DNA of 40,823 nt from Ardenticatenia bacterium (GCA_027069285.1 JALXEW010000258.1:1-40823); one strand, 5' to 3'; counted from the stretch's first letter, positions 3,113-21,090 are shown. Program-made: numbers and translations. The notes: generated by a model from the letters alone, not told the origin.

Positions 3113-3141
3113 TTGACAAGGGGCGTGAGCGGGTGTATACT
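3113..3141 (+). promoter_or_regulatory. Sigma-70-type promoter of the LacI/glycan operon
   Basis: TTGACA (3113-3118), a 17-nt spacer, then TATACT (3136-3141). Confidence 0.6.
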
Positions 3142-3151
3142 GGTCGTAGTT

Positions 3152-3165
3152 TGAGAGCGCTCCCA
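3152..3165. promoter_or_regulatory. LacI-family operator O1
   Basis: TGAGAGCGCTCCCA is a 14-bp pseudo-palindrome with a central CG and 6 of 7 arm positions symmetric. It fits the LacI-family TGnnnnCGnnnnCA layout and lies just downstream of the -10. Confidence 0.6.
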
Positions 3166-3224
3166 CGGCGCCCTCAGAGAAAACGGGCCAAAACGGCGCT
3201 TTTTAGCCTTTTTGACGGTGATTT

Positions 3225-3238
3225 TGAGAGCGCTCCCA
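3225..3238. promoter_or_regulatory. LacI-family operator O2 (identical copy)
   Basis: The exact same 14-mer TGAGAGCGCTCCCA ends 2 nt before the lacI-family ATG. It is 73 bp centre-to-centre from O1. Confidence 0.6.
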
Positions 3239-3240
3239 CA

Positions 3241-4269: not shown

Positions 4270-4410
4270 CACCGATAACAAGGAGGTGATGAGCAGCCAA
4301 TAAGAACCCGGGCCGAAGCCAAACGGCCCCTACACGCGAGTTTTTCAAATTCGGCGCCTTGCCGCAGATAAAAGTGCCTGCCTTCTTTAATGCGTTTCGG
4401 AGGGATTAAG

Positions 4411-5772
4411 ATGAAGCGCAACTTTTGGTCAGCAGTAGCCGTCCTGGTCGTGACGGGGATACTTGCCGCAGGAAGCGGCGCAGCCCTGGCCCAGGACGAG
4501 ATCACCCTCACCATCTGGATCATGCCCAACGGCCCCGACCCGATGGGCGCGATCACCCAAGAGATCGAGGCCTTCGAGGCAGATCACCCCGGCGTGAACG
4601 TCGAAGCCGAAGTTCTGGACTGGGGTTCGGCCTGGACGCGAATCACCACCGCCGCCGTCTCCGGTGAAGGCCCGGACGTGAGCCAGCTGGGCACCACCTG
4701 GGTCGCCGCGATCGACGCATTTGGCGCATTGCGACCCTTCACCGAGGAAGAGATCGCGGCCATGGGCGGGCCTTCCAACTTCGTCCCGCCGTCCTGGGCC
4801 ACCACCATCCCGGTCGGCAAAATCAGCCCGGTCGCCGTGCCCTGGTTCGTGGACGTGCGGGCCATGATCTACCGCGCCGACATCTTCGAGGAGCTGGGAA
4901 TAGACCCAGATGAAGCCTTTGCCGATTGGGATAGCTTCGACGCCACACTCGCCCAGATCATGGACGCCGGCCTGACCACCACAACCGCCGACGGCGAGGA
5001 GGTCCCCATTTACGCATTCGCCTTCCCCGGCAAGAACGACTGGAACGTGCTCCACAACTTCGCCCCCTGGGTCTGGGGCGCCGGCGGCGACATCCTGAAC
5101 GCCACCTATACCGAAGCCGTCTTCAACTCCCCGGCGGCAATGGAAGGGGTTGAATTCTACACCAGCCTCTATACCAAAGGCTACACCCCACCCGACGCCC
5201 TCGAGCTGAACAGCGCCCAGATCGAGGGGCTTTACGCCGAGGGCCGCGTCGCCATGGTAGTCTCCGGGCCGTGGATCGTCCTCAACTCCCGAACCGACCC
5301 CGAAAACGGCGGCTTTGCCGGATCGCCCGCAGCCGAAAACCTGGCCGTGGCACAGATCCCCGCAGGCCCCGCCGGGCGCTACACCTTCGTTGGCGGCTCC
5401 GACCTGACCGTTTGGAACTCCAGCGAGCACCAGGACCTGGCGGTCGAGCTGGTGCAGTACCTGGTCTCCGCCGAGAGCCAGGTCCGCTACTGCTCCAACA
5501 TCAGTATGCTGCCCGCCGTAGTCGAGGCACTGGAAGACCCGTACTTCGCCGAAGACCCGGCCTATAGCGTCTTCATCGAAGCGATGGATAACGGGCGCAG
5601 CTACCCGACCATCCCCGCCTGGGGGCCGATCGAGACCGTCATGGTCACCAACCTCGGCGCCCTATGGGACGATGTAGCCGGCGTCAACGGCCCGTTTGAC
5701 CCAGAAACCATGATCCCCGCCCGGCTGGATGCCGCCGTGGAGGAAGTCAACAACGTCCTGGCCCAGCAGTAA
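4411..5772 (+). CDS. Sugar ABC transporter substrate-binding protein (family 1 extracellular solute-binding)
   Basis: Signal/anchor MKRNFWSAVAVLVVTGILAAGSGAALA. GGAGG sits 7-8 nt upstream of ATG 4411. Typical SBP_bac_1 length and motifs, e.g. QLGTTW and PWFVDVRA. Confidence 0.9.
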   Translation: MKRNFWSAVAVLVVTGILAAGSGAALAQDEITLTIWIMPNGPDPMGAITQEIEAFEADHPGVNVEAEVLDWGSAWTRITTAAVSGEGPDVSQLGTTWVAAIDAFGALRPFTEEEIAAMGGPSNFVPPSWATTIPVGKISPVAVPWFVDVRAMIYRADIFEELGIDPDEAFADWDSFDATLAQIMDAGLTTTTADGEEVPIYAFAFPGKNDWNVLHNFAPWVWGAGGDILNATYTEAVFNSPAAMEGVEFYTSLYTKGYTPPDALELNSAQIEGLYAEGRVAMVVSGPWIVLNSRTDPENGGFAGSPAAENLAVAQIPAGPAGRYTFVGGSDLTVWNSSEHQDLAVELVQYLVSAESQVRYCSNISMLPAVVEALEDPYFAEDPAYSVFIEAMDNGRSYPTIPAWGPIETVMVTNLGALWDDVAGVNGPFDPETMIPARLDAAVEEVNNVLAQQ

Positions 5773-5791
5773 GGGCCATTCGCATAAGGTC

Positions 5792-5820
5792 GTGCCGGTG
5801 GGGCAAACCCCTGCCGGCAC
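5792..5820 (+). other. Intercistronic GC-rich stem-loop between the SBP and permease genes
   Basis: GTGCCGG(T)GGGG-CAAA-CCCC(TG)CCGGCAC gives about 11 bp of pairing with no T-tract. It has the position typical of mRNA-stabilising hairpins after ABC binding-protein genes. Confidence 0.5.
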
Positions 5821-5841
5821 GGCCAACCCAGGAGGCGAGGG

Positions 5842-6798
5842 ATGAGCGTAGTCGGCCTTCGTCCGTTCTTCAGGCGGGTTTACCGGTACCGCCTGGCATA
5901 TCTCATGATCCTGCCCACTGCACTCCTGATGCTGACCGTCCACTTCATGCCCAGCATCGAGGGCTTCATCATGTCGATGCTCAAGCTGAATCAATTCACA
6001 CTCCGGTACTTCCTGCGAGCGCCGTTCATCGGGCTGGAAAATTACCGCTCCATCCTCACCGATCCGGGCAACCCGGTTGTGGCGGGCATCACCGGAGCGG
6101 CCCGCAATACCCTATTTTACACCATCGTGGTCAACATCGGAACCCTCGGGCTTGGACTGGTACTCGCACTACTACTTAACCGGCGGTTTCCGGGCCGACG
6201 CCTGGCAAGGACATTAGTGCTTCTGCCGTGGGTGGTGCCCACCTATGCCGTTGGCCTGCTCTGGGGCGCGATGTGGCTCCGGGAATCCGGCGTCATCAAC
6301 ATGATCCTGGTCGACTGGCTACACCTCCTCAGAGAACGGCCCTTCTGGCTCATCGGCCCGAATGCGTTCTGGGCCGTCGTCATCCCCACCATATGGCGCT
6401 TCCTGCCGTTCAACACCATCATGATCCTCGCCGGCCTGCAAGTGATCCCCGATGAACTTTATGAGGCCGCCTCGATCGACGGCGCGTCGGCCTTCCAGCG
6501 ATTCCGTTATATCACCGTACCGCTGCTGATGCCCGTATTGGCGATCATGCTGCTTTGGGGCGTGATCTTCACCGCGTTTGGCTACAACATCGTGATCATG
6601 ATGTTCGGCAACGGCGGCGGATTCCCAGGCGAATACGCCGACCTTTTGATGCCGGCCATCACCCGCCAATCGTTCGGGCTATGGCAATTCGGGTTGGGCG
6701 CTGCGGCCTCGATCCTGATGATGCTCTTTATGATGATATTCGTTGCCATCTGGCTCCGAGTCTTCCGCAACGTCCTGACCCAGGAGGGGAGTCTGTGA
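5842..6798 (+). CDS. Sugar ABC transporter permease (MalF/UgpA-like)
   Basis: Six predicted TM segments and an EAA-type loop (ELYEAASIDGASAFQRFRYITVPLL). AGGAGG sits upstream of ATG 5842. Confidence 0.9.
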   Translation: MSVVGLRPFFRRVYRYRLAYLMILPTALLMLTVHFMPSIEGFIMSMLKLNQFTLRYFLRAPFIGLENYRSILTDPGNPVVAGITGAARNTLFYTIVVNIGTLGLGLVLALLLNRRFPGRRLARTLVLLPWVVPTYAVGLLWGAMWLRESGVINMILVDWLHLLRERPFWLIGPNAFWAVVIPTIWRFLPFNTIMILAGLQVIPDELYEAASIDGASAFQRFRYITVPLLMPVLAIMLLWGVIFTAFGYNIVIMMFGNGGGFPGEYADLLMPAITRQSFGLWQFGLGAAASILMMLFMMIFVAIWLRVFRNVLTQEGSL

Positions 6799-7691
6799 TG
6801 GCCGCCACAACATCCGGCCTGGAGACGGTGCAAAATCGGCTTTCCGCCATAACCCTATATCAGCTCAGGCGCTGGGCACTGGAGCGATTGGCCGACCTGC
6901 TCCTCATAACCCTGATAATCCTGATGCTCTTCCCCATATTCTGGATGGTGGTCACCTCGTTCAAAACCAACGCCGAGATCACCTCAAACGTACTATGGCC
7001 ATCGGAGCTACAACTCCGAAACTACATCGACCTGTGGGATACGGTCAACTTCGGCCTCTACTATAGGAACAGCCTGATCATCTGCTCGACCACCACGGTG
7101 ATAGCGACATTATTCGCCACCCTGGCAGGTTACGCCCTGGCCCGGTTCCGGTTCCCCGGCTCGAACATCTTCAGCGTGGCCGTGGTCGGCACGCAACTGA
7201 TACCCGGCATTATGATGATGTTGCCGCTTTACCTGACCTTCCGCGAGGTCACGCGCATCACCGGCATACAGATAATCGGCACCCAGGGCGGGCTGATCCT
7301 GCTATACACCGGCTTCTACATCCCGCTGAGCCTCTGGATCGTGCGCGGGTTCTTCGCCGCCATCCCGCCCGACCTGGAAGAGGCGGCCCTGATCGACGGG
7401 GCAACCAGATTCGGCGCATTCTGGCGGATCGCGCTCCCCCTGGCACGACCGGGGATAGTGGCGACGGCCATCTACGTCTTCCTGACGGCGTGGGATGAGC
7501 TATTCTTCGCCTGGGTGATGGACGTGCAGACCATCCCGGTTGGCATCCGGCTCTACGTGGGCCAGTACGCCAACCGATTCGACCTGATGATGGCGGCAGC
7601 AGTCGTGGTCACACTACCGGTACTGATCGTATTCTTCCTGCTGCAAAAACACATGATCAGCGGCCTGACGGCAGGAGCGGTCAAGGGGTGA
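6798..7691 (+). CDS. Sugar ABC transporter permease (MalG/UgpE-like)
   Basis: The ATG at 6798 overlaps the upstream TGA (GTGATG). EAA loop LEEAALIDGATRFGAFWRIALPL. The track ORF start at 6555 is an out-of-gene extension. Confidence 0.9.
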   Translation: MAATTSGLETVQNRLSAITLYQLRRWALERLADLLLITLIILMLFPIFWMVVTSFKTNAEITSNVLWPSELQLRNYIDLWDTVNFGLYYRNSLIICSTTTVIATLFATLAGYALARFRFPGSNIFSVAVVGTQLIPGIMMMLPLYLTFREVTRITGIQIIGTQGGLILLYTGFYIPLSLWIVRGFFAAIPPDLEEAALIDGATRFGAFWRIALPLARPGIVATAIYVFLTAWDELFFAWVMDVQTIPVGIRLYVGQYANRFDLMMAAAVVVTLPVLIVFFLLQKHMISGLTAGAVKG

Positions 7692-7694
7692 GTG

Positions 7695-8720
7695 ATGAGG
7701 GTACCTGTCATCGGCGCCATAACCGTCGGCCTGATGGCCGCCACGGCAGCCGTGGCGGGAACGCCATCACCCACGCCGACACCCGGCCCGGACGTTCTGC
7801 CCGGAGACGCCGACATCCTGCTGCCGGAATCCGGTGTGCTGCACGGGGTGTTCCTGCCGGGCCATCCGCTCGTCACGCCGGAGGATGTTGACGAGTACGC
7901 CGACATGGTTGGGCTTCGCCCGGCCATACAATTGCTGTTCTTCGACTGGACGTACCGGACATGGGATGAGGTGGAGCGCCAGATAGAGGCGGGTGCGCCG
8001 GACATGACATACGTGGTGACGTGGGAGCCGCGCGTCTTCCCAAATAGCAACGTGCTCAATGACATAGCAAGCGGCTCGCAGGACCGCATAATCCGCTACT
8101 TTGCCGAGGGCGCCCGTGACTACGGGGAGCCGATCTTCTTACGGTTCGGCCACGAGATGAACGGGGATTGGTATCCCTGGTCGGGAGCCTGGAACGGGCG
8201 CGAGCCGGAGCGTTACATCACGGCCTGGCGCCACGTGCACGACATCTTCAACGAGGTTGGCGCCGATAACGTCATATGGGTATGGGCGCCGAACGCATGG
8301 AGCGTGCCCAACGAGCCGTGGAACGCCCTGGAGAATTACTACCCCGGCGATGAGTATGTTGATTGGGTCGGCGTTGACTTTTACGGCCTCATGGCCGGAT
8401 GGGGGCGCAACGATCCAGGGCCGGCGATAGACCGGGTATACCGGCTTTACGGCGACCGTAAGCCGATCATGATCGCGGAGACCGCAGCAGCCGATTCGAC
8501 CCATTCCGACCCGGCATACGGCATGACACGCGCCGAATGGATAAACGCCCTTTTCGACGCGATCGAGGCCAGGCCCAACGTCCGGGCGTTCATCTGGTTC
8601 AACATAGATAAGGAAGCGGACTGGCGTGTCGAGGCCGATCCAGAGTCGCTGGCCACGTTCCGCGACCGACTGCTCGGCGGGCCGTATCTGGATTCCGCCC
8701 CGACCGGAGCGCAGGAGTGA
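7695..8720 (+). CDS. Secreted glycoside hydrolase family 26 (beta-mannanase-like)
   Basis: Signal peptide plus a PT stretch (AAVAGTPSPTPTPGP). GH26 acid/base motif FGHEMNGDWYPWSG. Putative nucleophile region IMIAETAA. A GTG at 7692 is an alternative start. Confidence 0.8.
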   Translation: MRVPVIGAITVGLMAATAAVAGTPSPTPTPGPDVLPGDADILLPESGVLHGVFLPGHPLVTPEDVDEYADMVGLRPAIQLLFFDWTYRTWDEVERQIEAGAPDMTYVVTWEPRVFPNSNVLNDIASGSQDRIIRYFAEGARDYGEPIFLRFGHEMNGDWYPWSGAWNGREPERYITAWRHVHDIFNEVGADNVIWVWAPNAWSVPNEPWNALENYYPGDEYVDWVGVDFYGLMAGWGRNDPGPAIDRVYRLYGDRKPIMIAETAAADSTHSDPAYGMTRAEWINALFDAIEARPNVRAFIWFNIDKEADWRVEADPESLATFRDRLLGGPYLDSAPTGAQE

Positions 8721-8774
8721 CGGGACTCGCCCCATCCCGTTATCGGTTCCCGTGCGTCACGGAGGGGACGCCAG

Positions 8775-11183
8775 GTGAGAGTTATAGCCGGTCTTTCCAT
8801 CGTTTCTATCCTTGCCGGGGCATGTGTCCCGGCCATGTTCGCAACGGATACGCCTATGCCACTTGAGAGCACCAGACCAAGACCTGACTTTATCCCTGCT
8901 GCCGCGTGGGCCAGGCCGATCGGTTTACCGGTTGAGCGTGTCGGCCACCCACGCACAGAGTACCACATCGTTGACGACGGCCCGTACCAGGGGGCGCCGC
9001 TTGGCGGCCTGGGGGCGGGGACGTTCGGACGCACATTCCGGGGGGACTTCGCACGGTGGCACCTTGACATCGGAGTCCACCGCTACGAGACGCTCCCGGC
9101 CAACATGTTCAGCGTCTACATGCGGCGGGGCGATGAGACGATCGCGCAGGCGCTATGGACCGGCGCCCCGAACGGCGTGCTCCAAAGCTGGAACTGGAAC
9201 TACCCGATCGGCGGCGGCACCTACTACGCCCTATACCCACGATCCTGGTTCGTTTACGACTGGGAACGATTCCCGGTTGAACTCAGCGTGGAGCAATTCT
9301 CCCCGGTGATACCCGGCGACTATCGCGTCAGCAGCTACCCGATCGCCCTCTTCATCTGGGAAGCCCACAACCCGACCGACGAGACGATCACCGTCGGGAT
9401 CATGCTCACATGGCAGAACCTGCTGGGTCACGGCTGGGATCGTGACTTCATCGGCGGCCAGGCCCACCACGCCGAACGCGATGGCGACACAGTAGGAGTG
9501 GTAATGACCCGTTCCGACGACTTCACCGGCGAGGAGTGGGACGGCTCGTGGGCCATCGCGGCCATCGGATCGCCGGGAGTGCGGCTCTCATATAGGAGCC
9601 GATTCCGCGTCAACGGGGACGGCGCCGAAATATGGGGGGACTTCGCCGCCGATGGAGCATTAGAAAACATTGACGACCGGACGCCCTCCCGGATGGGGGA
9701 GGTACTGGGCGCAGGCATTGCCGCCACATTCGAGATCGGGCCTGGCGAAACCATCCGGGTGCCGTTCGCGGTGGCCTGGGACATGCCGGTGATGACATTC
9801 GGCAACGGGACAGGCTGGTACAAGCGCTACACCGCCTTCTTCGGACGGGACGGCCACCACGCATGGGAGATCGCCCGCGAGGGCCTTTCCGAATGGGAAA
9901 ACTGGCGCCGCAGGATAATCGAATGGCAGCAGCCGATCCTCAACGATCCCGGCAGGCCGGACTGGTACAAGACGGCACTATTCAACGAACTCTACTTCCT
10001 GGCCGACGGCGCAACCGCCTGGGAACACGGTCGCGTGGGCGAACCGGAGCCGCCGGACGACTACATCGGCGGATTCCTCTACATCGAATGCTTCGACTAC
10101 CCATTCTACGCCACCTTTGACGTGGATTTTTACGCCTCATTCGCACTGCTCCAGCTATGGCCGGAGCTTGAGGTACGGCTGATGCGAGATTTCGCCGCCA
10201 CAGTGCCGATGGAGGACCTGACCGAGCGCCAGATCATCGCGACCGGCGAGACGGCACCCCGTCTGCTGGCCGGCGCCGTGCCACACGACCTGGGCGCCCC
10301 CCATGAAGACCCCTGGCTGATGCCCAACGCCTACGACTACCAGGACGTGAACCGCTGGAAAGACCTCAACGCCAAATTCGTCCTCCGCCTCTACCGCGAC
10401 GTAGTGCTCTTGGGCCGAGACGACCTTGCCAGCGAACTATGGGCCGACGCGCTGATGGCAATGGACTACCTGGCCGAGATGGATCGCGATGGCGACGGGA
10501 TACCGGAAAACGAGGGGTTCCCGGATCAAACCTATGACACCTGGTCGGTCAGCGGGGTCAGCGCCTACAGCGGCGGGCTATGGTTGGCGGCCCTGCGTGC
10601 GGCCCGCGAGCTTGCGTTGCTGGCCGGTGACCCCGAATCCGCCGAGCGTTTCGGCGCGATGCTGGATACCGCGCTCCAGACCTACGAGGACGCGCTATGG
10701 AACGGCAGCTACTACAACTACGACAACAGCGACTCACCTTACCACGATAGCATCATGGCCGATCAGCTCGCCGGGCAGTGGTACATGGACGTGGTGGGAT
10801 TACCGCTGCTGCCTGACGATCACATCCGATCCGCCCTGGAACGCATATACGAAATGAACGTAATGCGCTACGGGAACGGTCGGCTGGGCGCGGTAAACGG
10901 CATGAGACCCGATGGCGAAGTTGACGATTCCAGCCAGCAATCGGTTGAAGTATGGAGCGGCACCACATACGCCCTATCGTCCCTGATGATGTACCGTGGC
11001 ATGGCCGAGCAGGCCTGGGCCACCGCACACGGTGCCTACCTTGTCACATATGAAACCGGCGCCTTCTGGTTCCGCACCCCAGAGGCATGGGACGCCGACC
11101 TGAACTTCCGCGCCACCATCTACCTGCGCCCGCTATCGATCTGGGCGCTGGAAACAGCATACCGCTCCACCCACGGGCGCTGA
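8775..11183 (+). CDS. GH116 family beta-glucosidase / GBA2-type glucosylceramidase homologue
   Basis: Hallmark N-domain motif GAPLGGLGAGTFGRTFRGDFARWHL and a C-terminal (alpha/alpha)6 DUF608-type region. GGAGGGG sits 7 nt before GTG 8775. The N-terminus is hydrophobic and signal-like. Confidence 0.85.
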   Translation: MRVIAGLSIVSILAGACVPAMFATDTPMPLESTRPRPDFIPAAAWARPIGLPVERVGHPRTEYHIVDDGPYQGAPLGGLGAGTFGRTFRGDFARWHLDIGVHRYETLPANMFSVYMRRGDETIAQALWTGAPNGVLQSWNWNYPIGGGTYYALYPRSWFVYDWERFPVELSVEQFSPVIPGDYRVSSYPIALFIWEAHNPTDETITVGIMLTWQNLLGHGWDRDFIGGQAHHAERDGDTVGVVMTRSDDFTGEEWDGSWAIAAIGSPGVRLSYRSRFRVNGDGAEIWGDFAADGALENIDDRTPSRMGEVLGAGIAATFEIGPGETIRVPFAVAWDMPVMTFGNGTGWYKRYTAFFGRDGHHAWEIAREGLSEWENWRRRIIEWQQPILNDPGRPDWYKTALFNELYFLADGATAWEHGRVGEPEPPDDYIGGFLYIECFDYPFYATFDVDFYASFALLQLWPELEVRLMRDFAATVPMEDLTERQIIATGETAPRLLAGAVPHDLGAPHEDPWLMPNAYDYQDVNRWKDLNAKFVLRLYRDVVLLGRDDLASELWADALMAMDYLAEMDRDGDGIPENEGFPDQTYDTWSVSGVSAYSGGLWLAALRAARELALLAGDPESAERFGAMLDTALQTYEDALWNGSYYNYDNSDSPYHDSIMADQLAGQWYMDVVGLPLLPDDHIRSALERIYEMNVMRYGNGRLGAVNGMRPDGEVDDSSQQSVEVWSGTTYALSSLMMYRGMAEQAWATAHGAYLVTYETGAFWFRTPEAWDADLNFRATIYLRPLSIWALETAYRSTHGR

Positions 11184-11285
11184 TCCGCCGCCGGGACGCC
11201 TACCGACACCGACCCTGCCGGCCACATCATCTGGACAGGCTCGGTTTTATTACCATATTGACTACTTGAGTTGCACAGCCCTGTG

Positions 11286-11303
11286 CGGTATACTCATATA
11301 CCG
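11286..11303. promoter_or_regulatory. Perfect inverted repeat CGGTATA-N4-TATACCG; candidate operator overlapping a possible -10
   Basis: 7-bp arms with a 4-nt spacer, AT-rich in a GC-rich context. It contains TATACT (11289-11294), which lies 17 nt downstream of TTGAGT (11266-11271). Confidence 0.35.
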
Positions 11304-11393
11304 GTGATGGGGAAAGGCAATATCATAGCCCGCAATTCCCCGCCGTCTTCTGTGCCCCCTTGTATCTCTAAGTAGCAGGGCAACGAACCTACA

Positions 11394-11403
11394 GAGAGCG
11401 CTC
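11394..11403. promoter_or_regulatory. Third copy of the LacI-operator core (GAGAGCGCTC)
   Basis: This 10-mer is identical to the core of O1/O2 but the flanks are not symmetric. It sits in the leader about 105 nt upstream of the opine-DH-like gene. Confidence 0.35.
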
Positions 11404-11508
11404 AAAGACGGTTCTGGGCCGCCTTAGGTGCACATCACGCACTCACAAAGGCACCCACATCTCGTGTAACCGCAGCATCGAGAAACCTTTATCCTGTGGA
11501 GGAGGACG

Positions 11509-12639
11509 ATGGGCGAGAAACGACAAATAACCGTGGTTGGGGCAGGTCACGGCGGCAAAGCGATGGCTGCAGACCTGGCCTACCAGGGGCATGAGGTCAA
11601 CCTCTTCAACCGCAGCTGGCACCATATAGACACCATCGCCGCGCGAGGTGGAATCGAGATCAAATTCGAGGACGGCACCCAGGGTTTCGGAAACCTGCGC
11701 AAAGTGACCAGCGAGATGGAAGAAGCACTCGAAGACACCGAACTGATCATGGTCGTAGTCCCCGCATCCGGCCACCGGGATGTGGCCAGGATGTGTGCCC
11801 CACACCTGAAAGACGGCCAGATCATAGTCCTGAACCCCGGCAGGACGGGCGGCGCATTGGAATTCCGCAAAGTACTACAAGAATCCGGCTGCACAGCCGA
11901 CGTGATCGTGGCCGAGGCCGCAACCCTGCTATTCGCCAGCCGCAGCACCGGCCCGGCAGAAGCCCGGATATTCCGCCGTAAGAACACTGTCCCGCTGGCG
12001 GCGCTACCGGCCACGCAAACACCAAAAGTGCTCGAAGTCCTGAAAGACGTATACCCGCAATTCATCCCGGCCCCGAACGTGCTCCACACCAGCACGAACA
12101 ACCTGGGCGCTATCTTCCATCCGGCCCTGAGCATACTGAACGCCGGCTGGATCGAAAGCACAGGCGGCGCCTTCCAGTTCTACATGGAAGGCGTGACACC
12201 ATCCACATCAAGAGTGCTGGAGCGCCTGGATAGGGAACGGGTGACCGTGGCCGCTGCAATGGGCGTGCGCGTGCAGACCAGTATGGAATGGCTCGCCGGC
12301 GCATACTCCGCCTACGGCGACACCCTCTACGAGGCCATGCACCGTAACCCCGGCTACAAGGGCATCATGGCACCGGCGACCTTACGCCATCGCTACATCT
12401 TCGAGGACGTGCCCTACAGCCTGGTGCCGATCGCCGAACTGGGGCGTCGTTTCGGCGTTGACGTTTGGGCAATGGACGCGATGATCCGCCTGGCATCCGT
12501 GATCCACGGCACCGACTACTGGCATCGGGGCCGCACACTGGAGCGCATGGGCCTGGTGGGCCTCTCCGTGATGGAGATCACACGCCTGGTCGAAACCGGC
12601 AACGCACGTGACGAACGGGACATAGCGGAGATGGGGTGA
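11509..12639 (+). CDS. NAD(P)-dependent octopine/nopaline (opine) dehydrogenase family protein
   Basis: Rossmann motif ITVVGAGHGGKAMAADL. The family-typical middle and C-terminal region includes NNLGAIFHPALSILNAGWIES and YIFEDVPYSLVPI. GGAGGAGG sits upstream of the ATG. Confidence 0.85.
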   Translation: MGEKRQITVVGAGHGGKAMAADLAYQGHEVNLFNRSWHHIDTIAARGGIEIKFEDGTQGFGNLRKVTSEMEEALEDTELIMVVVPASGHRDVARMCAPHLKDGQIIVLNPGRTGGALEFRKVLQESGCTADVIVAEAATLLFASRSTGPAEARIFRRKNTVPLAALPATQTPKVLEVLKDVYPQFIPAPNVLHTSTNNLGAIFHPALSILNAGWIESTGGAFQFYMEGVTPSTSRVLERLDRERVTVAAAMGVRVQTSMEWLAGAYSAYGDTLYEAMHRNPGYKGIMAPATLRHRYIFEDVPYSLVPIAELGRRFGVDVWAMDAMIRLASVIHGTDYWHRGRTLERMGLVGLSVMEITRLVETGNARDERDIAEMG

Positions 12640-14258
12640 AAATGGCCAAAAAAGTGCTCGCCGGCGCCATCGGTGATTGCGTACACGTGGCAGGAGTAAC
12701 CAGATTCCTGAACATAGCCGAAGACCTGGGCTACGAAACCCACTTCACCGGCCCCGCGACCGACCTGGAAACCTTTGTCGAACGGGCAGTCGAAATACAG
12801 CCGGACGTGATCGGCGTCAGCTACCGGCTGACCCCGGAGAACGCCCGGACACTCCTGACAGAACTGAAAGGGATGCTGGAAGCAGCCGGCCTAACCGATA
12901 AAACACTGATGTTCGGCGGCACCCCACCGGTCGCCGAAGTCGCCCGCGAACTGGGCTACTTTGACGTGATATTCAGCGGCGACGAACCCCCGCACCGGGT
13001 GCAGGCCGCGCTGCGCGGCGAGCGCGTGGATAAGCCCGACGAATCCTCATACCCGCAGACGGCAATAGAACGCATAAAGTGGAAAGCTCCCTACCCGATC
13101 CTGCGCCATCACTTCGGCATCCCCGCCCCCACCATCGAGCCCACCGTTGAAGGGATCGCCAAAATAGCCGAGGCCCATGTGCTGGACGTAATATCGCTGG
13201 GCGCCGACCAGGACGCACAGGAAAACTTCTTCCGCCCGCACCTGCAAGACCCACGGAGCAAGGGCGCAGGTGGCGTCCCATTCCGCACAGAAGATGACCT
13301 AAAACGGCTTTACCGGGCCAGCAGACGCGGCAACTATCCCCTCATGCGTTCCTACTCCGGCACCGCCGATCACATCAAATACGCCGAGATGCTGGTACGC
13401 ACGATAAACAACGCCTGGTGTGCCACCTCACTGTTCTGGTTCAACGCGATGGACGGGCGCGGCCCATCCCCACTGGAGCAATCGATCCGCGAGCACCAGG
13501 AACTGATGCGCTGGCACGGCGAGCGAGGCATCCCGGTTGAGGGCAACGAGCCATACCACTGGGGTATGCGCGACGCGCCGGACGTAGTAGTCTGCGCGGC
13601 CTCGTACATATACGCCCACAACGCCAAGAAAATGGGCGTGCGGGACTACATCGCCACCTACATGTTCGAAAGCCCGCCCCACCTATCCAACCGGATGGAC
13701 CTGGCCAAATGCCTGGCCCAGATCGAGATCGCAGAGTCCTTTGCCGACGCAAACTTCCGGGTCTGGCGGCAGACCCGCACCGGACTCCTGAGCTACCCGG
13801 TCGACCAAAGGCGTGCACGCGCGCACCTGGCCCAAAGCATCATGCTACAGATGGCCGTGAAACCGCACATCGTACACATAGTGGGCTACACCGAGGCAGA
13901 TCACGCAGCCACGGCAGACGAAGTGATCGAGAGCGCCGTGATGGCCCAGCAAGTGATAGAAACGGCCATACGCGGCACCCCGGATATGACCTGCGATCCG
14001 GTGGTGCAGGCCCGCAAAGAGGAGCTGCTTGCCGAGACTCACGAGCTGCTGGACGCCATCCGCGCCCTCGCGCCCAACTTGGAAGACCCGCTATCCGACC
14101 CGGCCACACTGGCCCGCGCAGTCAAAGAAGGCCTGATGGACGCGCCACAACTGCTCAACAACCCATACGCTCCGGGCAGGATACGCACCCGCAGCATCAA
14201 CGGCGCCATCGTAGCCGTGGACGAAAGGGGCCGCCCGTGGAAGTGGTACGCCCGGTAA
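12636..14258 (+). CDS. B12-binding-domain protein with a large uncharacterised C-terminal domain
   Basis: The N-terminal ~130 aa look like a Rossmann-like cobalamin-binding domain (GAIGDCVHVAGV ... GVSYRL ... MFGGTP). About 400 further aa have no motif I can name and no CxxxCxxC. The start overlaps the upstream stop (GTGA at 12636-12639); ATG 12642 is an alternative. Confidence 0.75.
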   Translation: MKMAKKVLAGAIGDCVHVAGVTRFLNIAEDLGYETHFTGPATDLETFVERAVEIQPDVIGVSYRLTPENARTLLTELKGMLEAAGLTDKTLMFGGTPPVAEVARELGYFDVIFSGDEPPHRVQAALRGERVDKPDESSYPQTAIERIKWKAPYPILRHHFGIPAPTIEPTVEGIAKIAEAHVLDVISLGADQDAQENFFRPHLQDPRSKGAGGVPFRTEDDLKRLYRASRRGNYPLMRSYSGTADHIKYAEMLVRTINNAWCATSLFWFNAMDGRGPSPLEQSIREHQELMRWHGERGIPVEGNEPYHWGMRDAPDVVVCAASYIYAHNAKKMGVRDYIATYMFESPPHLSNRMDLAKCLAQIEIAESFADANFRVWRQTRTGLLSYPVDQRRARAHLAQSIMLQMAVKPHIVHIVGYTEADHAATADEVIESAVMAQQVIETAIRGTPDMTCDPVVQARKEELLAETHELLDAIRALAPNLEDPLSDPATLARAVKEGLMDAPQLLNNPYAPGRIRTRSINGAIVAVDERGRPWKWYAR

Positions 14259-15095
14259 TCAACCCTCGCCCGCCGCAATCGGCACCTGGCTGGCATCGCC
14301 ACGCAGCACCACATATCTGCTGCGCACCCAGCCAACCCCGAACGGGGAGACCACCTGATACCAGCTCCAGTCCAGATTCCGGCCCACGATCTCCATCTCC
14401 GTGCTGCTGCGAACCGCGCCGAGTATCGCGTACTCAGTTCCCGGCCCCGCCCGGACGTTGAGATAAGCGGTGAAGACCACGGCATACGGAGTCGGTGGTG
14501 GCGGCGGCGGGACATAGGGGGAAACATCCGGCGTTCCGGACGCATCACCGCGCAGTGCCACATAGCTGGCCTTCACCCATCCGATGCCGTATGGCGAGGA
14601 GACTTGATACCAGCTCCAATCGGTATTGCGGCCCACAATGATCAGCTCCATGCCGGTGTGCACCACCCCGATAACCGGATAATCCAGACCCGGCCCGGTG
14701 CGCACGTTCAAATTCGGGGCGAAGATAACGGCAATCGGCTGCGCGTAAGAGCTGACCTGAATATCGGTCGTGACCTCCACGCCGCCGACATCACCGGCTA
14801 CGACTATATAGCGGGCCATCACCCAGCCGGTGCCGAACGGCGATTCGACCTGCCACCAAAGCCGATTCGCGTCACGCCCGACGATCGGCAACTGGTCTCC
14901 GCGATGCACCACGCCGAGTATGACAAAAGCCGTCCCAGGCCCCTCGCGCACATTGAGGTTATCCACATTGACGACGGCCACCGGGCCGCCCCCCTGGGCC
15001 GCAGCGTCCCCCACCGGGCCGACAGGGGCCGCCCATACCGTCCCCACCACGACAAACAGGGAGATGACGACTGCCAACAAAATCGATCTTCTCAT
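14259..15095 (-). CDS. Secreted/anchored protein with three bacterial SH3 (SH3b) domains
   Basis: N-terminal hydrophobic anchor, then three units of NLNVR.GPG....ILG.V..G..L.IVGR......WYQV.SP.G.GWV...Y. A PPPPPP linker precedes the third unit. Confidence 0.85.
   Translation of the reverse strand: MRRSILLAVVISLFVVVGTVWAAPVGPVGDAAAQGGGPVAVVNVDNLNVREGPGTAFVILGVVHRGDQLPIVGRDANRLWWQVESPFGTGWVMARYIVVAGDVGGVEVTTDIQVSSYAQPIAVIFAPNLNVRTGPGLDYPVIGVVHTGMELIIVGRNTDWSWYQVSSPYGIGWVKASYVALRGDASGTPDVSPYVPPPPPPTPYAVVFTAYLNVRAGPGTEYAILGAVRSSTEMEIVGRNLDWSWYQVVSPFGVGWVRSRYVVLRGDASQVPIAAGEG
14292..14981 (-). repeat. Three tandem SH3b-coding repeats (about 75 aa each)
   Basis: Repeated peptide blocks are visible in the translation. 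Confidence 0.7.
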
Positions 15096-16870: not shown

Positions 16871-17761
16871 TCAGCGTCGGAAATAAAGGGCGAACCCGGT
16901 CAGCACCTCACCCCCGGCAGGCGTGGCATCCTCATCCTCCGTCTCCGGCGTACACGGGCCGGTGATCAACTCGTCGGACCGCTCGCTAAGCCCCGGCAGA
17001 TCAACCCTATATGCCACATCCGGTTCCATACGAAAATCGGCATACGCCGGGCCTTCCTCCGGTTTCAACCCGGTGAAAAAGCGATCCTCACCGCCCTGCC
17101 AGCTCACCCTCACCTCGACCCCCGGCACCCCCTCGCCGTCCGCATCCTCCACATAAACCTCCAATACCCCCGAATAAGCCGGGTTACAAAACTCCTGCAC
17201 AAACACCAACTCGAAATCCCCGGTAGGGGTATCGGTCGGGCTTGGCGAAGGGGTGAGAGTGCCCAAAGTCGGCGTTGGGGACGGAGTACGGGTGGGGAAA
17301 CTCAGCACAATAGTCGGGGTTGGCGTCGGCGTCACCGGCGTAGGAGTCGGCGGGACGGTGGCATCCGGATTCCCTATAATCACATCCGCGCACCCGGCCT
17401 TACCCTGCAGCCGATAAAGCCGCACCATATCCGTCAGAATGCGTGACTCGGCATTAGAGCGCGGCCATCCGCCGACCACAAGCTCACACGCCATATCCGC
17501 CACCAACTGGAGCGGATCGTCAGAGCCGAACGCCGCCAGCCTCGACAGCGCCCGCTCCAGATCGCGATCCTGCCCGTAAGCTGCGGCGATCATCGCCACA
17601 TACTGCGCCTTACTTTCGGGATCGAGCTGCCAGGGAGCGGTATCGTACTGTACCAGAGGGTCCACATTCCAGGCATAGTAGAGCGACAGCCCCACGCCGA
17701 CCGCCAGACCCATCAGCACCCCGATCCACGAGACGGCCCCGCCCTTATGCTTAGCCTTCAT
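16871..17761 (-). CDS. Hypothetical single-pass membrane protein with PT linker; paralogue of the upstream gene
   Basis: N-terminal TM (VSWIGVLMGLAVGVGLSLYYAW), a ~110-aa domain similar to ORF 17758-18159, a PTPTP-rich linker and an acidic C-terminal domain. Its ATG overlaps the upstream stop (ATGA). Confidence 0.7.
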   Translation of the reverse strand: MKAKHKGGAVSWIGVLMGLAVGVGLSLYYAWNVDPLVQYDTAPWQLDPESKAQYVAMIAAAYGQDRDLERALSRLAAFGSDDPLQLVADMACELVVGGWPRSNAESRILTDMVRLYRLQGKAGCADVIIGNPDATVPPTPTPVTPTPTPTIVLSFPTRTPSPTPTLGTLTPSPSPTDTPTGDFELVFVQEFCNPAYSGVLEVYVEDADGEGVPGVEVRVSWQGGEDRFFTGLKPEEGPAYADFRMEPDVAYRVDLPGLSERSDELITGPCTPETEDEDATPAGGEVLTGFALYFRR

Positions 17762-18159
17762 TGCCCCCGGAACTCCGGCGTCTGCGTGGCAGGCAAACGG
17801 TATGGCTCCATCGGCGGGGTGAGCCGCCCCAGCGCCTCCGAGAGCGCCACCAGGTTGATGATGTCGGTCATACTACGCCCGGTGGAGATATAAGTCTCGG
17901 TCAGCTCCTGGACGTACTGGGGTATGTTGGTCTCGCCCAGCCACCGCAACTGCTCTATGGCGACACTCGGATCGCGATGCTGACGGAAGGCCGTTGCCAC
18001 CATCACGGTGTAGTCAGCGCGGTACACCTCGTCCAGGTCCCGCAGCGGGCTATGCACATACTCGACCGGCGCGATCACCCAGCCTATCGTCAGCCCGATC
18101 GCCACCCCGACCGAGCCGCCGAGCAAGAACGAGAACGCAAACCGCCAAAAACCCCTCAT
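17758..18159 (-). CDS. Hypothetical small single-pass membrane protein (133 aa)
   Basis: The start is taken at MRGFWRFAFSFLLGG (ATG 18159) because the longer track ORF runs through the tRNA gene. The TM plus ~100-aa domain aligns by eye with the N-terminus of the next gene. Confidence 0.6.
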   Translation of the reverse strand: MRGFWRFAFSFLLGGSVGVAIGLTIGWVIAPVEYVHSPLRDLDEVYRADYTVMVATAFRQHRDPSVAIEQLRWLGETNIPQYVQELTETYISTGRSMTDIINLVALSEALGRLTPPMEPYRLPATQTPEFRGQ

Positions 18160-18185
18160 GGAACCGGCCCCCGCCGTACCGGGCG

Positions 18186-18212
18186 ATAAAAAAGCCGGGG
18201 TCAGACCCGGCT
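18186..18212 (-). terminator. Rho-independent terminator after tRNA-Leu
   Basis: On the minus strand: AGCCGGG-TCTGAC-CCCGGCT followed by TTTTTTAT. It begins 7 nt after the tRNA 3' end. Confidence 0.7.
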
Positions 18213-18218
18213 GAGCCA

Positions 18219-18300
18219 TGCCGGAGGTGGGATTCGAACCCACACGGGTTGCCCCGCGCGATTTTGAGTCGCGTGCGTCTGCCTGTTCCGCCACTCCGGC
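18219..18300 (-). tRNA. tRNA-Leu (anticodon CAA)
   Basis: Hand-folded cloverleaf. Acceptor GCCGGAG/CTCCGGC, 3-bp D stem, anticodon stem CGCGA/TCGCG with loop CTCAAAA, long variable arm, T arm GTGGG-TTCGAAT-CCCAC. CCA is not encoded. Confidence 0.9.
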
Positions 18301-18355
18301 CAGCTGCCAATAGTATAGCACAGAACCGCCCTTTTGGCTACGCATCACCGAGCAG

Positions 18356-18385
18356 TTGACGCCTAGAACATAAGTTCGGTATAAT
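18356..18385 (+). promoter_or_regulatory. Sigma-70-type promoter of the radical-SAM gene
   Basis: TTGACG (18356-18361), an 18-nt spacer, then TATAAT (18380-18385). Confidence 0.6.
18366..18377. promoter_or_regulatory. LexA (SOS, Cheo-type) box GAACATAAGTTC
   Basis: Matches GAAC-N4-GTTC and lies inside the promoter spacer. The 14-mer TAGAACATAAGTTC is identical to the one at the uvrA promoter. Confidence 0.65.
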
Positions 18386-18396
18386 CCCAACAGGGG

Positions 18397-19554
18397 ATGA
18401 CGGCGAGGAGACAAATGCTCATCAAAGCACAGCCCGAACTTTCCGAAAAACTGGCGCTCATGGGCAACGCGGCCAGACATGAACCGGCTGGCGATGCGCC
18501 GGATGAGCAACTCGACAAAGCCATGCACTGCATCGCATACGTCGCCACGCCCCAGGGCCGCAAGCCGATACTGAAAGCACTACTCACGTCCCACTGCGAG
18601 CGCAGTTGCCACTACTGCCCATTCCGGGCCGGACGTCCCATGCGGCGCGTGAGCTTCACCCCGGATGAGCTGGCGGCGGCCTTCGATGCCATGCACCGCG
18701 CCGGATTAGTACAGGGCATATTCATCTCATCCGGCATCCTGAACGGCGGCGTAGCCATACAGGACAAAATCCTGGCGACCGCCGACATCATCCGTCACAA
18801 ACACAAATACGCCGGCTACATGCACATCAAGATAATGCCCGGTGCCGAATACGATCAGGTCCGCCGCGCCATGCAACTTGGAGATCGGGTCTCCGTCAAC
18901 CTCGAAGCGCCATCGGCAAAACACCTACAAAAGCTGGCTCCCCAAAAAAACTTCCACTCCGAACTAACAAAGCGGCTGGCCTGGACATATGAGATACGCG
19001 CCCGCGAGGGCCTGCGTGCCGGGACAGTGACCCAATTCGTCGTCGGAGCGGCAGACGAGACAGACCTGGAACTCTTAGAACTCAGCGCCAGGCTCTACCG
19101 CCAACTGGGCCTCCGCAGAGTCTACTTCTCGGCCTTCGAGCCGATCCCCAACACCCCGCTCGAGGGCCGATCGCCGACCCCACCGATCCGGGAGCGGCGG
19201 CTATACCAGGCCGGATTTCTCCTGCGCGACTACGGTTGGGACGTGGAAGAACTGCCTTTTGCGCCAGATGGTAACCTCCGCACCGATGTCGACCCCAAAT
19301 TAGCGTGGGCGCTGGAAAACCTGGCCGAGGCGCCGGTGGACGTGATGAAAGCCTCGCGCCGGGAACTCCTACATGTTCCAGGCATCGGCCCCAAAGGCGC
19401 CGACGCCATAATCAAAGCGCGGAAACTCGGCCCATTGCGCAGCCTGGAAGACCTGCGAGCCATCGGAATACGAAACGTCAGAAGGGCCGCCCCCTTCATC
19501 CTCTTCGGCGGGCGGCGCCCCGATCGGCAGCTGACGTTATTCCCCGCCGGATAA
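18397..19554 (+). CDS. Radical SAM protein with C-terminal helix-hairpin-helix ('putative DNA modification/repair radical SAM protein' type)
   Basis: CxxxCxxC cluster motif CERSCHYCPF. N-terminal KLALMGNAARHE block. C-terminal HhH LLHVPGIGPKGADAIIKARKLG. ATG 18415 (GAGGAG 4 nt upstream) is an alternative start. Confidence 0.85.
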   Translation: MTARRQMLIKAQPELSEKLALMGNAARHEPAGDAPDEQLDKAMHCIAYVATPQGRKPILKALLTSHCERSCHYCPFRAGRPMRRVSFTPDELAAAFDAMHRAGLVQGIFISSGILNGGVAIQDKILATADIIRHKHKYAGYMHIKIMPGAEYDQVRRAMQLGDRVSVNLEAPSAKHLQKLAPQKNFHSELTKRLAWTYEIRAREGLRAGTVTQFVVGAADETDLELLELSARLYRQLGLRRVYFSAFEPIPNTPLEGRSPTPPIRERRLYQAGFLLRDYGWDVEELPFAPDGNLRTDVDPKLAWALENLAEAPVDVMKASRRELLHVPGIGPKGADAIIKARKLGPLRSLEDLRAIGIRNVRRAAPFILFGGRRPDRQLTLFPAG

Positions 19555-21090
19555 CATCTCGCGGGCCTTTTGGCGCAACTCCCGTTTCAACACCTTCCCC
19601 GCCGCCGAGATCGGCAACCCATCCGTGAAGATCACGCGCTTTGGCACCTTATACCGCGCCAGGTTATCGTAAAGGAAATCCAGCAACTCCCGTTCCGAGG
19701 CCTCAATGCCCGGCCTGAGCACCACGAACGCCCAGCCCACCTCTCCCCACTTATCATCCGGCACGCCGACCACCGCGCACTGTGCCACTGCCGGATGGCG
19801 GTAAAGCACCTGCTCGATCTCGACCGGGTACACATTCTCCCCGCCGGAGATAAACATATCCTTCTTACGGTCTACAATGAAGAAATACCACTCCTCATCA
19901 TAATAAGCCAGGTCGCCGGTGTGGAACCACCCCTCATCGTCAACCGCCTCCTCCGTGGCCTGGGGATTATTGAAATAGCCGGAGCAGAACGACGGCCCCT
20001 TAAGCACCAACTCGCCCACCTGATTCGGCCCCAGCGGACGGTTTTGATCATCGACGATCCGGGCGTCCACGTAGAAATTAGGGCGCCCTATTGAGCCGGC
20101 CTTACGTTCCGCATCCTCCGGTGCCAGGGCGAAGATGCCAGGCCCGAACTCAGTCATCCCAAACCCCTGCTTGAACCGTACCCCCTTTTCCCGCATAAAC
20201 TGCCGGATCAGCGGGACAGGCAGCGGCGCACCGCCCGAAGTACAAAAGCGCAGCGAACTGAGATCGGCCTCCGGCCAATTCGGCGCCTGGGTCATCATCT
20301 GGTACATCGTCGGCACCCCGGCGAAAACCGTCGCCCTGTACTTTTGGATCAGGTCAAGCACCAGCGCCGGATCGAACTGGCGAATCAGCACCACCGTTCC
20401 GCCCAAGATCATCAGCGGCATAGTGTAGACCAGCAAACCGCCCGTATGGAAAAGCGGGAAGACGTTGACGGTAACGTCGCCCGGCATCAGATCATGGATC
20501 ACGGTATTAAGCGTATTCCACGCGATCATGCGATGGCTGATCTGAGCGCCTTTTGGGAGTCCCGTAGTGCCGCCGGTGAACAACAGGCACGCTATATCCT
20601 CCTCGGTCAGCGACTCGCACTCGACCGGCGTATTCGGCGCCGAATCCAGCGCCCGCTCGAACAGGATACTCCCCGGAAGCCCATCGGATTCGACGTGCAG
20701 CAGGCGCGGCTCGATCCCGGCCTCCCGAACCGCGTCGCCGACAGTCCGGGCGAACTCCGACGAATAGATCACCGCCTTTGGCGAGGTATCCCGCATAAGC
20801 GCGGCCAGCTCACGCCAATGCAACCGCCGGTTATAAGGCGTCAGGATCGCGCCGAGCTTCCCGCAGGCGAAAAACGCATCCAGGTACTCGACCCCATCAT
20901 AAGCGACGATCCCCACCCGGTCGCCTTTGGAAATGCCCGCCTCGCCACTCAACCAATTAGCGAGCCGATTCGCCCGATCATTCATCTGCGCATAGGTGAA
21001 ACTCACCGCCGGGCTTTTCCCCTCATCCACCACCGCGAGCCTATCCGGCGAGTAGATCGCCCGGCGTCCGGCGACATCACCGATGTACAC
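19537..21090 (-). CDS. AMP-dependent acyl-CoA synthetase/ligase (FadD-like)
   Basis: AMP-binding signature LFTGGTTGLPKGA plus GFGMTE, TGDLAYYDEEWYFFIVDRKKDMFISGGENV and the terminal PISAAGKVLKREL. GTG start with AAGGAG 8 nt upstream. Confidence 0.9.
   Translation of the reverse strand: MYIGDVAGRRAIYSPDRLAVVDEGKSPAVSFTYAQMNDRANRLANWLSGEAGISKGDRVGIVAYDGVEYLDAFFACGKLGAILTPYNRRLHWRELAALMRDTSPKAVIYSSEFARTVGDAVREAGIEPRLLHVESDGLPGSILFERALDSAPNTPVECESLTEEDIACLLFTGGTTGLPKGAQISHRMIAWNTLNTVIHDLMPGDVTVNVFPLFHTGGLLVYTMPLMILGGTVVLIRQFDPALVLDLIQKYRATVFAGVPTMYQMMTQAPNWPEADLSSLRFCTSGGAPLPVPLIRQFMREKGVRFKQGFGMTEFGPGIFALAPEDAERKAGSIGRPNFYVDARIVDDQNRPLGPNQVGELVLKGPSFCSGYFNNPQATEEAVDDEGWFHTGDLAYYDEEWYFFIVDRKKDMFISGGENVYPVEIEQVLYRHPAVAQCAVVGVPDDKWGEVGWAFVVLRPGIEASERELLDFLYDNLARYKVPKRVIFTDGLPISAAGKVLKRELRQKAREMLSGGE

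Follow-up and report, generated by a model that had tools for sequence, protein, structure and literature searches.

A widespread and still-orphan gene pair links a predicted adenosylcobalamin-dependent mutase to an opine dehydrogenase

What do an opine dehydrogenase and a protein with a vitamin B12-binding domain do together? The question is raised by a 40,823-nucleotide stretch of DNA from an Ardenticatenia bacterium (GCA_027069285.1 JALXEW010000258.1:1-40823; the window below means this whole stretch), in which a gene for an opine dehydrogenase (ODH; gene 1) runs directly into a gene for a B12-domain protein (gene 2). A first-pass annotation made from the sequence alone had taken the two for a functional pair, had left about 400 residues of the second protein unassigned and could name no pathway for them. 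Here we find that the pair is a genuine, widespread and still-orphan module of an ODH and a predicted adenosylcobalamin (AdoCbl)-dependent mutase. On balance we consider it probable that a fused, GlmSE-type AdoCbl carbon-skeleton mutase and an ODH of the CENDH type, named after N-(1-D-carboxyethyl)-L-norvaline dehydrogenase, act on one and the same amino- or imino-(di)carboxylic acid.

Gene neighbourhood gives strong evidence that the two genes form a functional pair. Among 89 distinct related loci examined for an ODH by tblastn, 86 carry one on the same strand as the B12 gene, in several bacterial phyla and in Asgard archaea. The distance to the B12 gene is at most 300 nt in 80 loci and 301-700 nt in two, and in four loci only inserted pathway genes lie between. 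Two contigs are too short to judge and a single locus, to which we return below, has no ODH. In the clade whose proteins share at least 68% identity with that of the window, the ODH gene precedes the B12 gene; in the clade at 55-62% it mostly follows. The loci also differ in the genes around the pair, which is retained in Halothermothrix, Anoxybacter and Asgard archaea. Because the synteny persists with either gene order and with unrelated flanks, we regard the pair as a functional unit, as the first-pass annotation had proposed, and one whose synteny extends to other genomes.

The B12 protein family is large, with more than 7500 clusters at 90% identity and, at 50% identity, 773 clusters at E ≤ 1e-3 and 182 at E ≤ 1e-30. 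Relatives are encoded in at least 597 stretches of a species-genome collection, nearly all from different species. Anaerolineae dominate the family, which also occurs in Roseiflexus, Bipolaricaulota, Sumerlaeota, Fraserbacteria, Poribacteria and Actinomycetota, in Bacillota (Halothermothrix orenii, Anoxybacter fermentans and Halanaerobiales) and in Heimdall-, Thor- and Promethearchaeota of the Asgard archaea. Since the B12 protein is 70-78% identical across Anaerolineae, the module probably has a core function there.

In the window, the junction of the two genes reads GGAGATGGGGTGAAAATGGCC, and the stop codon of gene 1 and a GTG start of gene 2 share the GTGA at 12636-12639. Both open reading frames (ORFs) are thus found where they had been called, with the 4-nt overlap that goes with this start. 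An alternative start, the ATG at 12642, lies 2 nt past the stop of gene 1 and gives a protein of 538 amino acids. It is the start implied by the public gene call for the identical protein (P0001), which has 538 amino acids, and with it a 2-nt gap takes the place of the overlap. Either way, the translation of the two genes is closely coupled.

Gene 1 is, from its sequence, a bona fide member of the ODH family, of the bacterial CENDH type, and is predicted to encode an NAD(P)H oxidoreductase. Its product matches PF02317 at 1.3e-47 (162 bits, cut-off 30), in line with the octopine/nopaline dehydrogenase family named in the first-pass annotation. Residues 6-108 match NAD_Gly3P_dh_N and ApbA, with VVGAGHGG as the N-terminal GxGxxG motif. 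Residues 3-360 align with CENDH from Arthrobacter (PDB 1bg6, E 1.1e-80), compared with an E-value of only 6e-9 for octopine dehydrogenase. In the 1bg6 alignment, His204, Arg295 and Asp300 fall on His202, Arg292 and Asp297 of CENDH, residues that are said to have been given catalytic roles by Britton and colleagues in 1998. Homologues of gene 1 form more than 7000 clusters at 90% identity and are about 70% identical across Anaerolineae. Plasmid homologues were sought as a sign of an Agrobacterium-type opine context, and none was found.

The N-terminal part of the gene 2 product is a predicted cobalamin-binding Rossmann domain, again as first annotated. Residues 6-113 pass PF02310 (4e-10, 40.0 bits, cut-off 32.1), and the best sequence matches of the domain in the PDB are lysine 5,6-aminomutase beta, MtaC-like corrinoid proteins and mutase small subunits. 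Foldseek places the domain on the HCM small subunit 4r3u_C with a template modelling (TM) score of 0.85. No radical-SAM match was found in gene 2, which agrees with the earlier annotation.

Does this domain still bind cobalamin? Across 112 family sequences, His17 and Gly20, which align with the His and Gly of DxHxxG in 4jgi (EGDLHDIGK), are invariant. The same holds for Tyr63-Arg64-Leu65 of the SYRL segment, and in the partly conserved GG segment Gly95 is present in at least 90% of the sequences. These residues speak against a protein whose B12-like domain no longer binds cobalamin or only senses it, and which would be a cofactor-independent enzyme or a regulator. So do the 70-78% conservation across Anaerolineae, as expected of an enzyme, and the lack of any Pfam match to a DNA-binding or signalling domain in gene 2. 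Such a protein would be consistent with Cys15, conserved in at least 90% of the 112 sequences, which takes the Asp position of DxHxxG (Asp14 lies one residue earlier), and with the distant member P0275, which has lost the His motif. We consider this explanation most improbable.

Two paralogous classes were also seen. Proteins of about 620 amino acids (P0285, P0289, P0292) keep DPHTxG in its canonical form and have extra residues inserted behind the B12 domain, and proteins of about 1250 amino acids (P0278, P0290) are fused to a complete GlmL/MutL reactivase. The mutase-like part of both classes matches no NCBIfam model.

The rest of the gene 2 product can be placed by structure and profile comparison. 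PDB sequence searches with the protein or with the family profile matched nothing outside the B12 domain. A first AlphaFold2 model, built from 15 close homologues, had a predicted local distance difference test score (pLDDT) of 74, was poor in residues 160-277 and already matched the epsilon subunit of glutamate mutase in Foldseek (1cb7_B, E 2.8e-12). A second model, built from 112 diverse family members, reached a pLDDT of 93 and a predicted TM score of 0.89. Its best matches in the PDB are 6h9e_B (E 2.6e-15) and 1cb7_B (E 1.2e-14), both glutamate mutase epsilon, with TM scores of 0.59/0.65 and a root-mean-square deviation of 4.0 Å over 432 columns. OraE (ornithine 4,5-aminomutase), KamD (lysine 5,6-aminomutase), MCM (methylmalonyl-CoA mutase), HCM (2-hydroxyisobutyryl-CoA mutase) and IcmF follow, and nearly all top matches of this model are AdoCbl isomerases.

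Profile comparison points the same way. We built a GlmE alignment of 60 sequences from E. coli O157 GlmE, which lies in an annotated glmS-glmL-glmE-methylaspartase cluster, and homologues of at least 60% identity from metagenome contigs. In hhalign, the full gene 2 protein matches this alignment with a probability of 90.7% (E 1.3e-6) and the barrel alone with 91.9% (E 6.8e-7), compared with just 0.8-15% against a single GlmE sequence. The match of the C-terminal segment to GlmE is convincing: in the profile alignment, 'GLLDAPQL..N..A.G...T....GA..AVD' pairs with 'GVLDVPFAP...N.GK..P.RDN.GA.R'. One relative, P0247, passes the MutE family PF06368 with 27.5 bits over profile positions 21-383. Gene 2 is a single-chain sigma-epsilon (GlmS/GlmE-like) fusion of the glutamate-mutase lineage.

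The first-pass annotation had seen no obvious mutase signature and only a loose resemblance to large subunits of B12 mutases. A PF06368 match is in fact present on residues 278-528, at 21.8 bits and below the 26.6 cut-off, and the C-terminal part falls into the AdoCbl-mutase TIM barrel with GlmE as its nearest relative. The resemblance thus pointed the right way but was put too weakly. The link to a characterised group holds at the level of fold and superfamily and does not reach the level of the family.

Some of the related loci carry further genes that bear on the cofactor. GlmL-type proteins accompany AdoCbl mutases. A GlmL/MutL gene lies directly upstream in four loci (L059, L044, L014 and L012), two of which, L014 and L012, are from Anaerolineae and have mutases 72-74% identical to the window protein. 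The GlmL of L059 scores 600 bits against the GlmL equivalog NF040745 (cut-off 475), compared with 399 bits against the ornithine Or-4 model, and is 36% identical to E. coli GlmL. MutL/GlmL is also fused to three homologues of the B12 protein (P0278, P0290, P0298). We consider GlmL fusion and adjacency the best indirect evidence for an AdoCbl cofactor and putative radical chemistry.

Asparagine synthase B (AsnB) is encoded next to or between the genes of the pair in 10 loci (for example L008, L024, L065 and L090) and within a few kb of it in about six more; the AsnB neighbour scores 557 bits against NF006949 (cut-off 499). A D-Ala-D-Ala-ligase-like (Ddl-like) ATP-grasp gene is part of the L059 operon, which reads ODH, Ddl-like, 4HBT, GlmL, mutase and HD, and Ddl-like homologues lie near the pair in L051 (on the opposite strand) and L054. 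The homologue P0247 is fused to a glutathione-synthetase/RimK-type ATP-grasp domain, and P0254, weakly, to an M15 peptidase. GlmL and Ddl-like genes are rare among the related loci. Clustering of 1068 ORFs from 83 loci returned nothing recurrent beyond ODH, AsnB and a generic ABC ATPase family.

Is gene 2 then simply a glutamate mutase? In that case it would be a fused, divergent glutamate (methylaspartate) mutase converting L-glutamate to (2S,3S)-3-methylaspartate. The ODH would replace methylaspartate ammonia-lyase, for example by taking 3-methylaspartate through 3-methyloxaloacetate to 2-oxobutyrate, or by N-alkylation of 3-methylaspartate. GlmE is the best structural and profile match, the GlmL of the L059 operon passes the 'methylaspartate mutase accessory protein' equivalog, the order GlmL-ODH-mutase in L044 parallels the E. 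coli O157 cluster, and AsnB, often found nearby, works on an aspartate skeleton. However, the window protein is just 14-15% identical to GlmE when aligned by Foldseek and 22% when aligned by profile, it neither reaches the cut-off of PF06368 nor matches a GlmE model of NCBIfam, and no methylaspartase or mesaconase gene was seen in the 89 loci.

The active site bears on the same question. This comparison is alignment-based and tentative, and confidence is low in the alignment of the first two barrel strands. Glutamate is reportedly bound in GlmE by Arg66, Arg100, Arg149, Glu171 and Tyr181, roles that are said to come from the work of Reitzer and colleagues in 1999 and, for GlmE residues likewise, of Gruber and colleagues in 2001. 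Two equivalents are kept and speak for a glutamate mutase: Arg149 corresponds to the invariant Arg238, on which profile and sequence-profile alignments agree, and Glu330, at the adenosyl ribose, to the invariant Glu420. The position of Arg100 is held by an invariant Gln195. Glu171 falls ambiguously on Asp273 (profile alignment) or Cys262 (sequence-profile alignment), and is thus at best an Asp. The Tyr177/Tyr181 loop faces a gap and is unmatched, and Arg66 falls on Arg157 or His159, a placement that is unreliable. Further invariant arginines of the barrel, in the 112 sequences, are Arg157, Arg275, Arg312, Arg381 and Arg460.

A glutamate site that is partly altered argues against a plain glutamate mutase, which we consider unlikely. 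In our reading, the gene 2 product is a putative mutase that keeps its adenosyl site and whose substrate site has been reshaped to take another substrate, probably a polyanionic one. A substrate with a modified amino group would fit both the missing Arg100 equivalent and the altered Glu171 position.

Alternatively, gene 2 could encode a class III aminomutase, B12-dependent and assisted by pyridoxal phosphate (PLP), of the lysine 5,6- or ornithine 4,5-type. The ODH would then oxidise the new amine, in analogy to the 2,4-diaminopentanoate or 3,5-diaminohexanoate dehydrogenases of ornithine and lysine fermentation. A mutase followed by an NAD(P)-dependent dehydrogenase acting on a C-N bond is indeed the logic of those fermentations. 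Lysine 5,6-aminomutase beta is the best sequence match of the B12 domain (E 5e-7), OraE and KamD are the second and third fold matches, and GlmL-related proteins also occur in ornithine degradation (NF040744 match). Against this, no lysine is invariant in the 112 sequences and none reaches 90% conservation in residues 1-128, the Rossmann domain in which aminomutases hold the PLP lysine. GlmE is ahead of the aminomutases by five orders of magnitude in Foldseek E-value, and the accessory protein favours the GlmL model over ornithine Or-4 by the scores given above. An aminomutase seems to us quite improbable.

A further explanation starts from the annotations. Members of the family are called 'cobalamin-dependent protein', 'methionine synthase' or 'methylmalonyl-CoA mutase cobalamin-binding subunit', and the second of these names, found in some NCBI records, would suit a corrinoid methyl carrier or methyltransferase, with the ODH unrelated to it or lending it redox support. 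Methyltransferases, too, can have TIM-barrel domains. In one Heimdallarchaeaceae locus (L087:4889-12039), the sole case of its kind, genes for MttB-family methyltransferase, Met_synt_B12 and S-methyl_trans proteins flank the pair; their presence may be fortuitous or may tie the pair to methyl-group metabolism. Methyltransferase genes do not recur beside the pair as conserved neighbours, however, and the four-helix B12-binding_2 cap, PF02607, has no Pfam match in gene 2, whose Rossmann domain begins at residue 6. Fold matches with TM scores above 0.4 are AdoCbl isomerases, methionine synthase being reached through the Rossmann domain only (TM about 0.2), and only AdoCbl mutases have GlmL reactivases as fusion partners or neighbours. 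We judge a methyltransferase role very unlikely.

How could a mutase of this kind and an ODH work together? The proposal that we favour, a carbon-skeleton mutase and an ODH sharing one metabolite, builds on the observed fold and family assignments, the conserved ligand histidine, the synteny and the accessory genes. Genes 1 and 2 would form a self-contained metabolic module of two enzymes, with gene 2 encoding an AdoCbl-dependent radical isomerase of the glutamate-mutase lineage. His17 would serve as the lower cobalt ligand in place of dimethylbenzimidazole (base-off/His-on), and the TIM barrel would cap the upper face of the cobalamin and hold the 5'-deoxyadenosyl group together with the substrate. 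Homolysis of the Co-C bond would give an adenosyl radical that abstracts hydrogen from the substrate. A 1,2 carbon-skeleton shift would then take place in an amino- or imino-(di)carboxylic acid that is related to glutamate but is probably not glutamate.

Using NAD(P)(H), the ODH would act on that metabolite's C-N bond, and its step could come first or second. It might reductively condense a 2-oxo acid and an amine to make the substrate of the mutase. Or it might remove the product of the mutase and so pull an unfavourable equilibrium, the part that methylaspartase plays in the classical pathway from glutamate; the position of the ODH where methylaspartase stands in the operon suggests that it may do so. 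In some lineages the module would be extended by a GlmL-type reactivase, AsnB and a D-Ala-D-Ala-ligase-like ATP-grasp enzyme, accessory genes that suggest an acidic amino-acid skeleton resembling aspartate or glutamate, later amidated or ligated. That the reaction is a new AdoCbl rearrangement, for example a carbon-skeleton shift in an opine-type or modified glutamate- or aspartate-like acid that the ODH makes or consumes, is a possibility we place somewhat below an even chance.

Several points weigh against the proposal that we favour, of a mutase and an ODH sharing one metabolite. The PF06368 score of the window protein is below the cut-off, no NCBIfam mutase equivalog is matched above its cut-off and no GlmE match appears at E ≤ 0.01. 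The glutamate-binding set of GlmE is only partly matched, given the glutamine at the Arg100 position and the uncertain equivalents of Glu171 and Arg66, and the B12 motif has Cys15 at the Asp position. GlmL is found neither in the window nor in most Anaerolineae loci. The locus without an ODH (L012, 1710-4868, Anaerolineales) has GlmL followed by a mutase 72% identical to that of the window, with no ODH in 14.8 kb. We know of no characterised ODH that is encoded beside a cobalamin enzyme or works with one, and the chemical logic of the pair is without precedent. Finally, the AdoCbl form of the cofactor, the carbon-skeleton chemistry, the order of the steps and the class of the substrate are what we infer from these comparisons.

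Other roles that we considered are a peptidoglycan D-amino-acid route, an osmolyte pathway, an isoleucine precursor made via 3-methyloxaloacetate and an orphan B12-dependent leucine 2,3-aminomutase. That Asgard archaea also have the pair speaks against a role in peptidoglycan alone.

If the reaction is indeed a new AdoCbl rearrangement, the pair would represent a new B12 isomerase reaction and the first known pathway to join an opine dehydrogenase and B12, conserved in lineages that range from Chloroflexi through Halanaerobiales to Asgard archaea. The AdoCbl-dependent isomerase reactions known so far are few, and additions to them are rare. Once identified, the reaction would allow thousands of annotations to be corrected, and models of B12 demand would gain a cobamide-dependent function for habitats rich in Chloroflexi, for example sludge, sediments and hot springs. 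It would also give bacterial CENDH-type opine dehydrogenases a first physiological role. With a module of two genes, the question is directly approachable by heterologous expression.

The features of the pair and of the DNA just upstream are collected in Table 1.

Table 1. Position of the gene pair, its predicted domains and the upstream features in the window
Feature	Position	Strand	Details
GH116 glycosidase gene	8775..11183		Upstream of the ODH gene; Pfam
Intergenic region, GH116 gene to ODH gene	11184..11508	+	325 nt
ODH gene (gene 1)	11509..12639	+	ORF, 376 amino acids, ATG start
B12-protein gene (gene 2)	12636..14258	+	ORF, 540 amino acids from GTG at 12636
Predicted cobalamin-binding Rossmann domain	12651..13013	+	Residues ~6-126; PF02310, Foldseek
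Motif G-D-C-V-H-V-A-G	12672..12695	+	Residues 13-20; hidden Markov model alignment to 4jgi
AdoCbl-mutase-type (beta/alpha)8 barrel with C-terminal subdomain	13089..14255	+	Residues ~152-540; Foldseek, hhalign

The window is an ordinary segment of an Anaerolineae (Chloroflexota) chromosome, and the closest relatives of both proteins are from Anaerolineae/Anaerolineales metagenome-assembled genomes, at 70-78% identity. Pfam scans of 27 ORFs of the window besides the pair found no gene for B12 biosynthesis, B12 transport, an adenosyltransferase or GlmL. Directly upstream of the pair lies a co-directional sugar-utilisation operon (3109-11183) with LacI, a solute-binding protein, two permeases, GH26 and GH116, which is not kept beside the pair in other genomes.

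The intergenic region between the GH116 and ODH genes has the length given in the first-pass annotation, which had also described it as a long leader containing several hairpins. A promoter scan places a sigma-70-like site, TTGAGT-17-TATACT, at 11266-11294, and a strong Shine-Dalgarno sequence, GGAGGAGGA, stands immediately 5' of the ODH ATG. The leader has no Rfam match, either at the gathering threshold in a scan of the whole window or at E ≤ 10 for 11100-11600. By blastn it has no similarity to the upstream regions of 21 loci with the same gene order, and likewise none to any of the loci. Its predicted folding energy does not stand out from that of shuffled sequences (z = -1.16), 26 out of 200 of which fold equally well. 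A riboswitch or leader RNA was therefore rejected, for want of an Rfam match, of conservation and of a fold better than shuffled sequence.

Downstream, the stop codon of gene 2 (14256-14258) abuts that of a convergent SH3b-repeat gene at 14259..15095 on the minus strand, with a spacer of 0. The last seven residues of gene 2 are PWKWYAR, where all homologues instead have '...PLSExER...' and 10-25 more residues. This difference suggests that the 3' end of gene 2 has been remodelled. Rfam matches a single feature of the window, a tRNA (18219-18300, minus strand). The ORF that surrounds it (17758..18528, minus strand) lacks a Pfam match and is probably not a gene. A few kb downstream of the pair lie genes for a radical-SAM and helix-hairpin-helix protein (18397-19551, plus strand) and for an AMP-binding, acyl-CoA-ligase-like enzyme (19537-21090, minus strand), with no apparent tie to the pair.

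Elsewhere, the two Halanaerobiales loci, of Halothermothrix (L085) and Anoxybacter (L086), have a paralogue of EF-G upstream and a Crp/Fnr-family protein directly after the pair, possibly its dedicated regulator. In Anoxybacter an ISL3 transposase gene lies between the EF-G gene and the pair.

How does the pair compare with systems already described? The first-pass annotation called it an undescribed metabolic module, and this claim has to be given up: the module was described in print in 2009. Zhang, Rodionov, Gelfand and Gladyshev (BMC Genomics 10:78, PMC2667541) predicted a new family of B12-dependent proteins in 11 genomes, with no function assigned. Its members carry, at the N-terminus, a distant B12-binding domain, are predicted to have a TIM barrel and are 'always adjacent' to an octopine/nopaline dehydrogenase of pfam02317; some genomes have D-Ala-D-Ala ligase and glutamine-hydrolysing asparagine synthase nearby, and the family occurs in Chloroflexi and Clostridia (PMC2667541). 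Each of these features was recovered independently here, and we equate the two families by these matching descriptions, not by sequence. Unlike the present analysis, that study (PMC2667541) drew no link to glutamate mutase or GlmL.

The absence of a pathway name in the first-pass annotation is matched by NCBIfam, none of whose equivalogs fits the B12 protein above cut-off. NCBIfam (June 2026) also has no model that names this protein, consistent with its orphan status. We found no functional study of the family in the full-text literature; most subscription journals were outside reach, so that one may exist.

Among opine dehydrogenases, which included octopine dehydrogenase (3c7a) and CntM in our comparison, CENDH of Arthrobacter sp. 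1C (1bg6) is the closest to gene 1. The two share the Rossmann domain and the PF02317 helical domain, and about half of their positions are identical.

Lysine 5,6-aminomutase and ornithine 4,5-aminomutase (KamDE and OraSE) are the next-best fold matches of gene 2 after glutamate mutase, and KamE is the nearest sequence match of its B12 domain. In their pathways an NAD(P)-dependent amine dehydrogenase acts after the mutase. The window family differs from them in having no conserved PLP lysine and another order of domains, and the accessory protein of its relatives is of the GlmL type, not of the ornithine Or-4 type.

The closest system is glutamate mutase, GlmS/GlmE (MutS/MutE; 1cb7, 1i9c, 6h9e), which gives the best match of the barrel and has the base-off/His-on type of B12 domain in common with gene 2. 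By comparison, the window protein fuses both subunits with the B12 domain first, has CxHxxG instead of DxHxxG, and is partnered by an opine dehydrogenase instead of a methylaspartase. As with glutamate mutase, GlmL is found in the operons of some of its relatives. In locus L044 the order is GlmL-ODH-mutase, compared with glmS-glmL-glmE-methylaspartase in E. coli O157: the ODH takes the place of the lyase.

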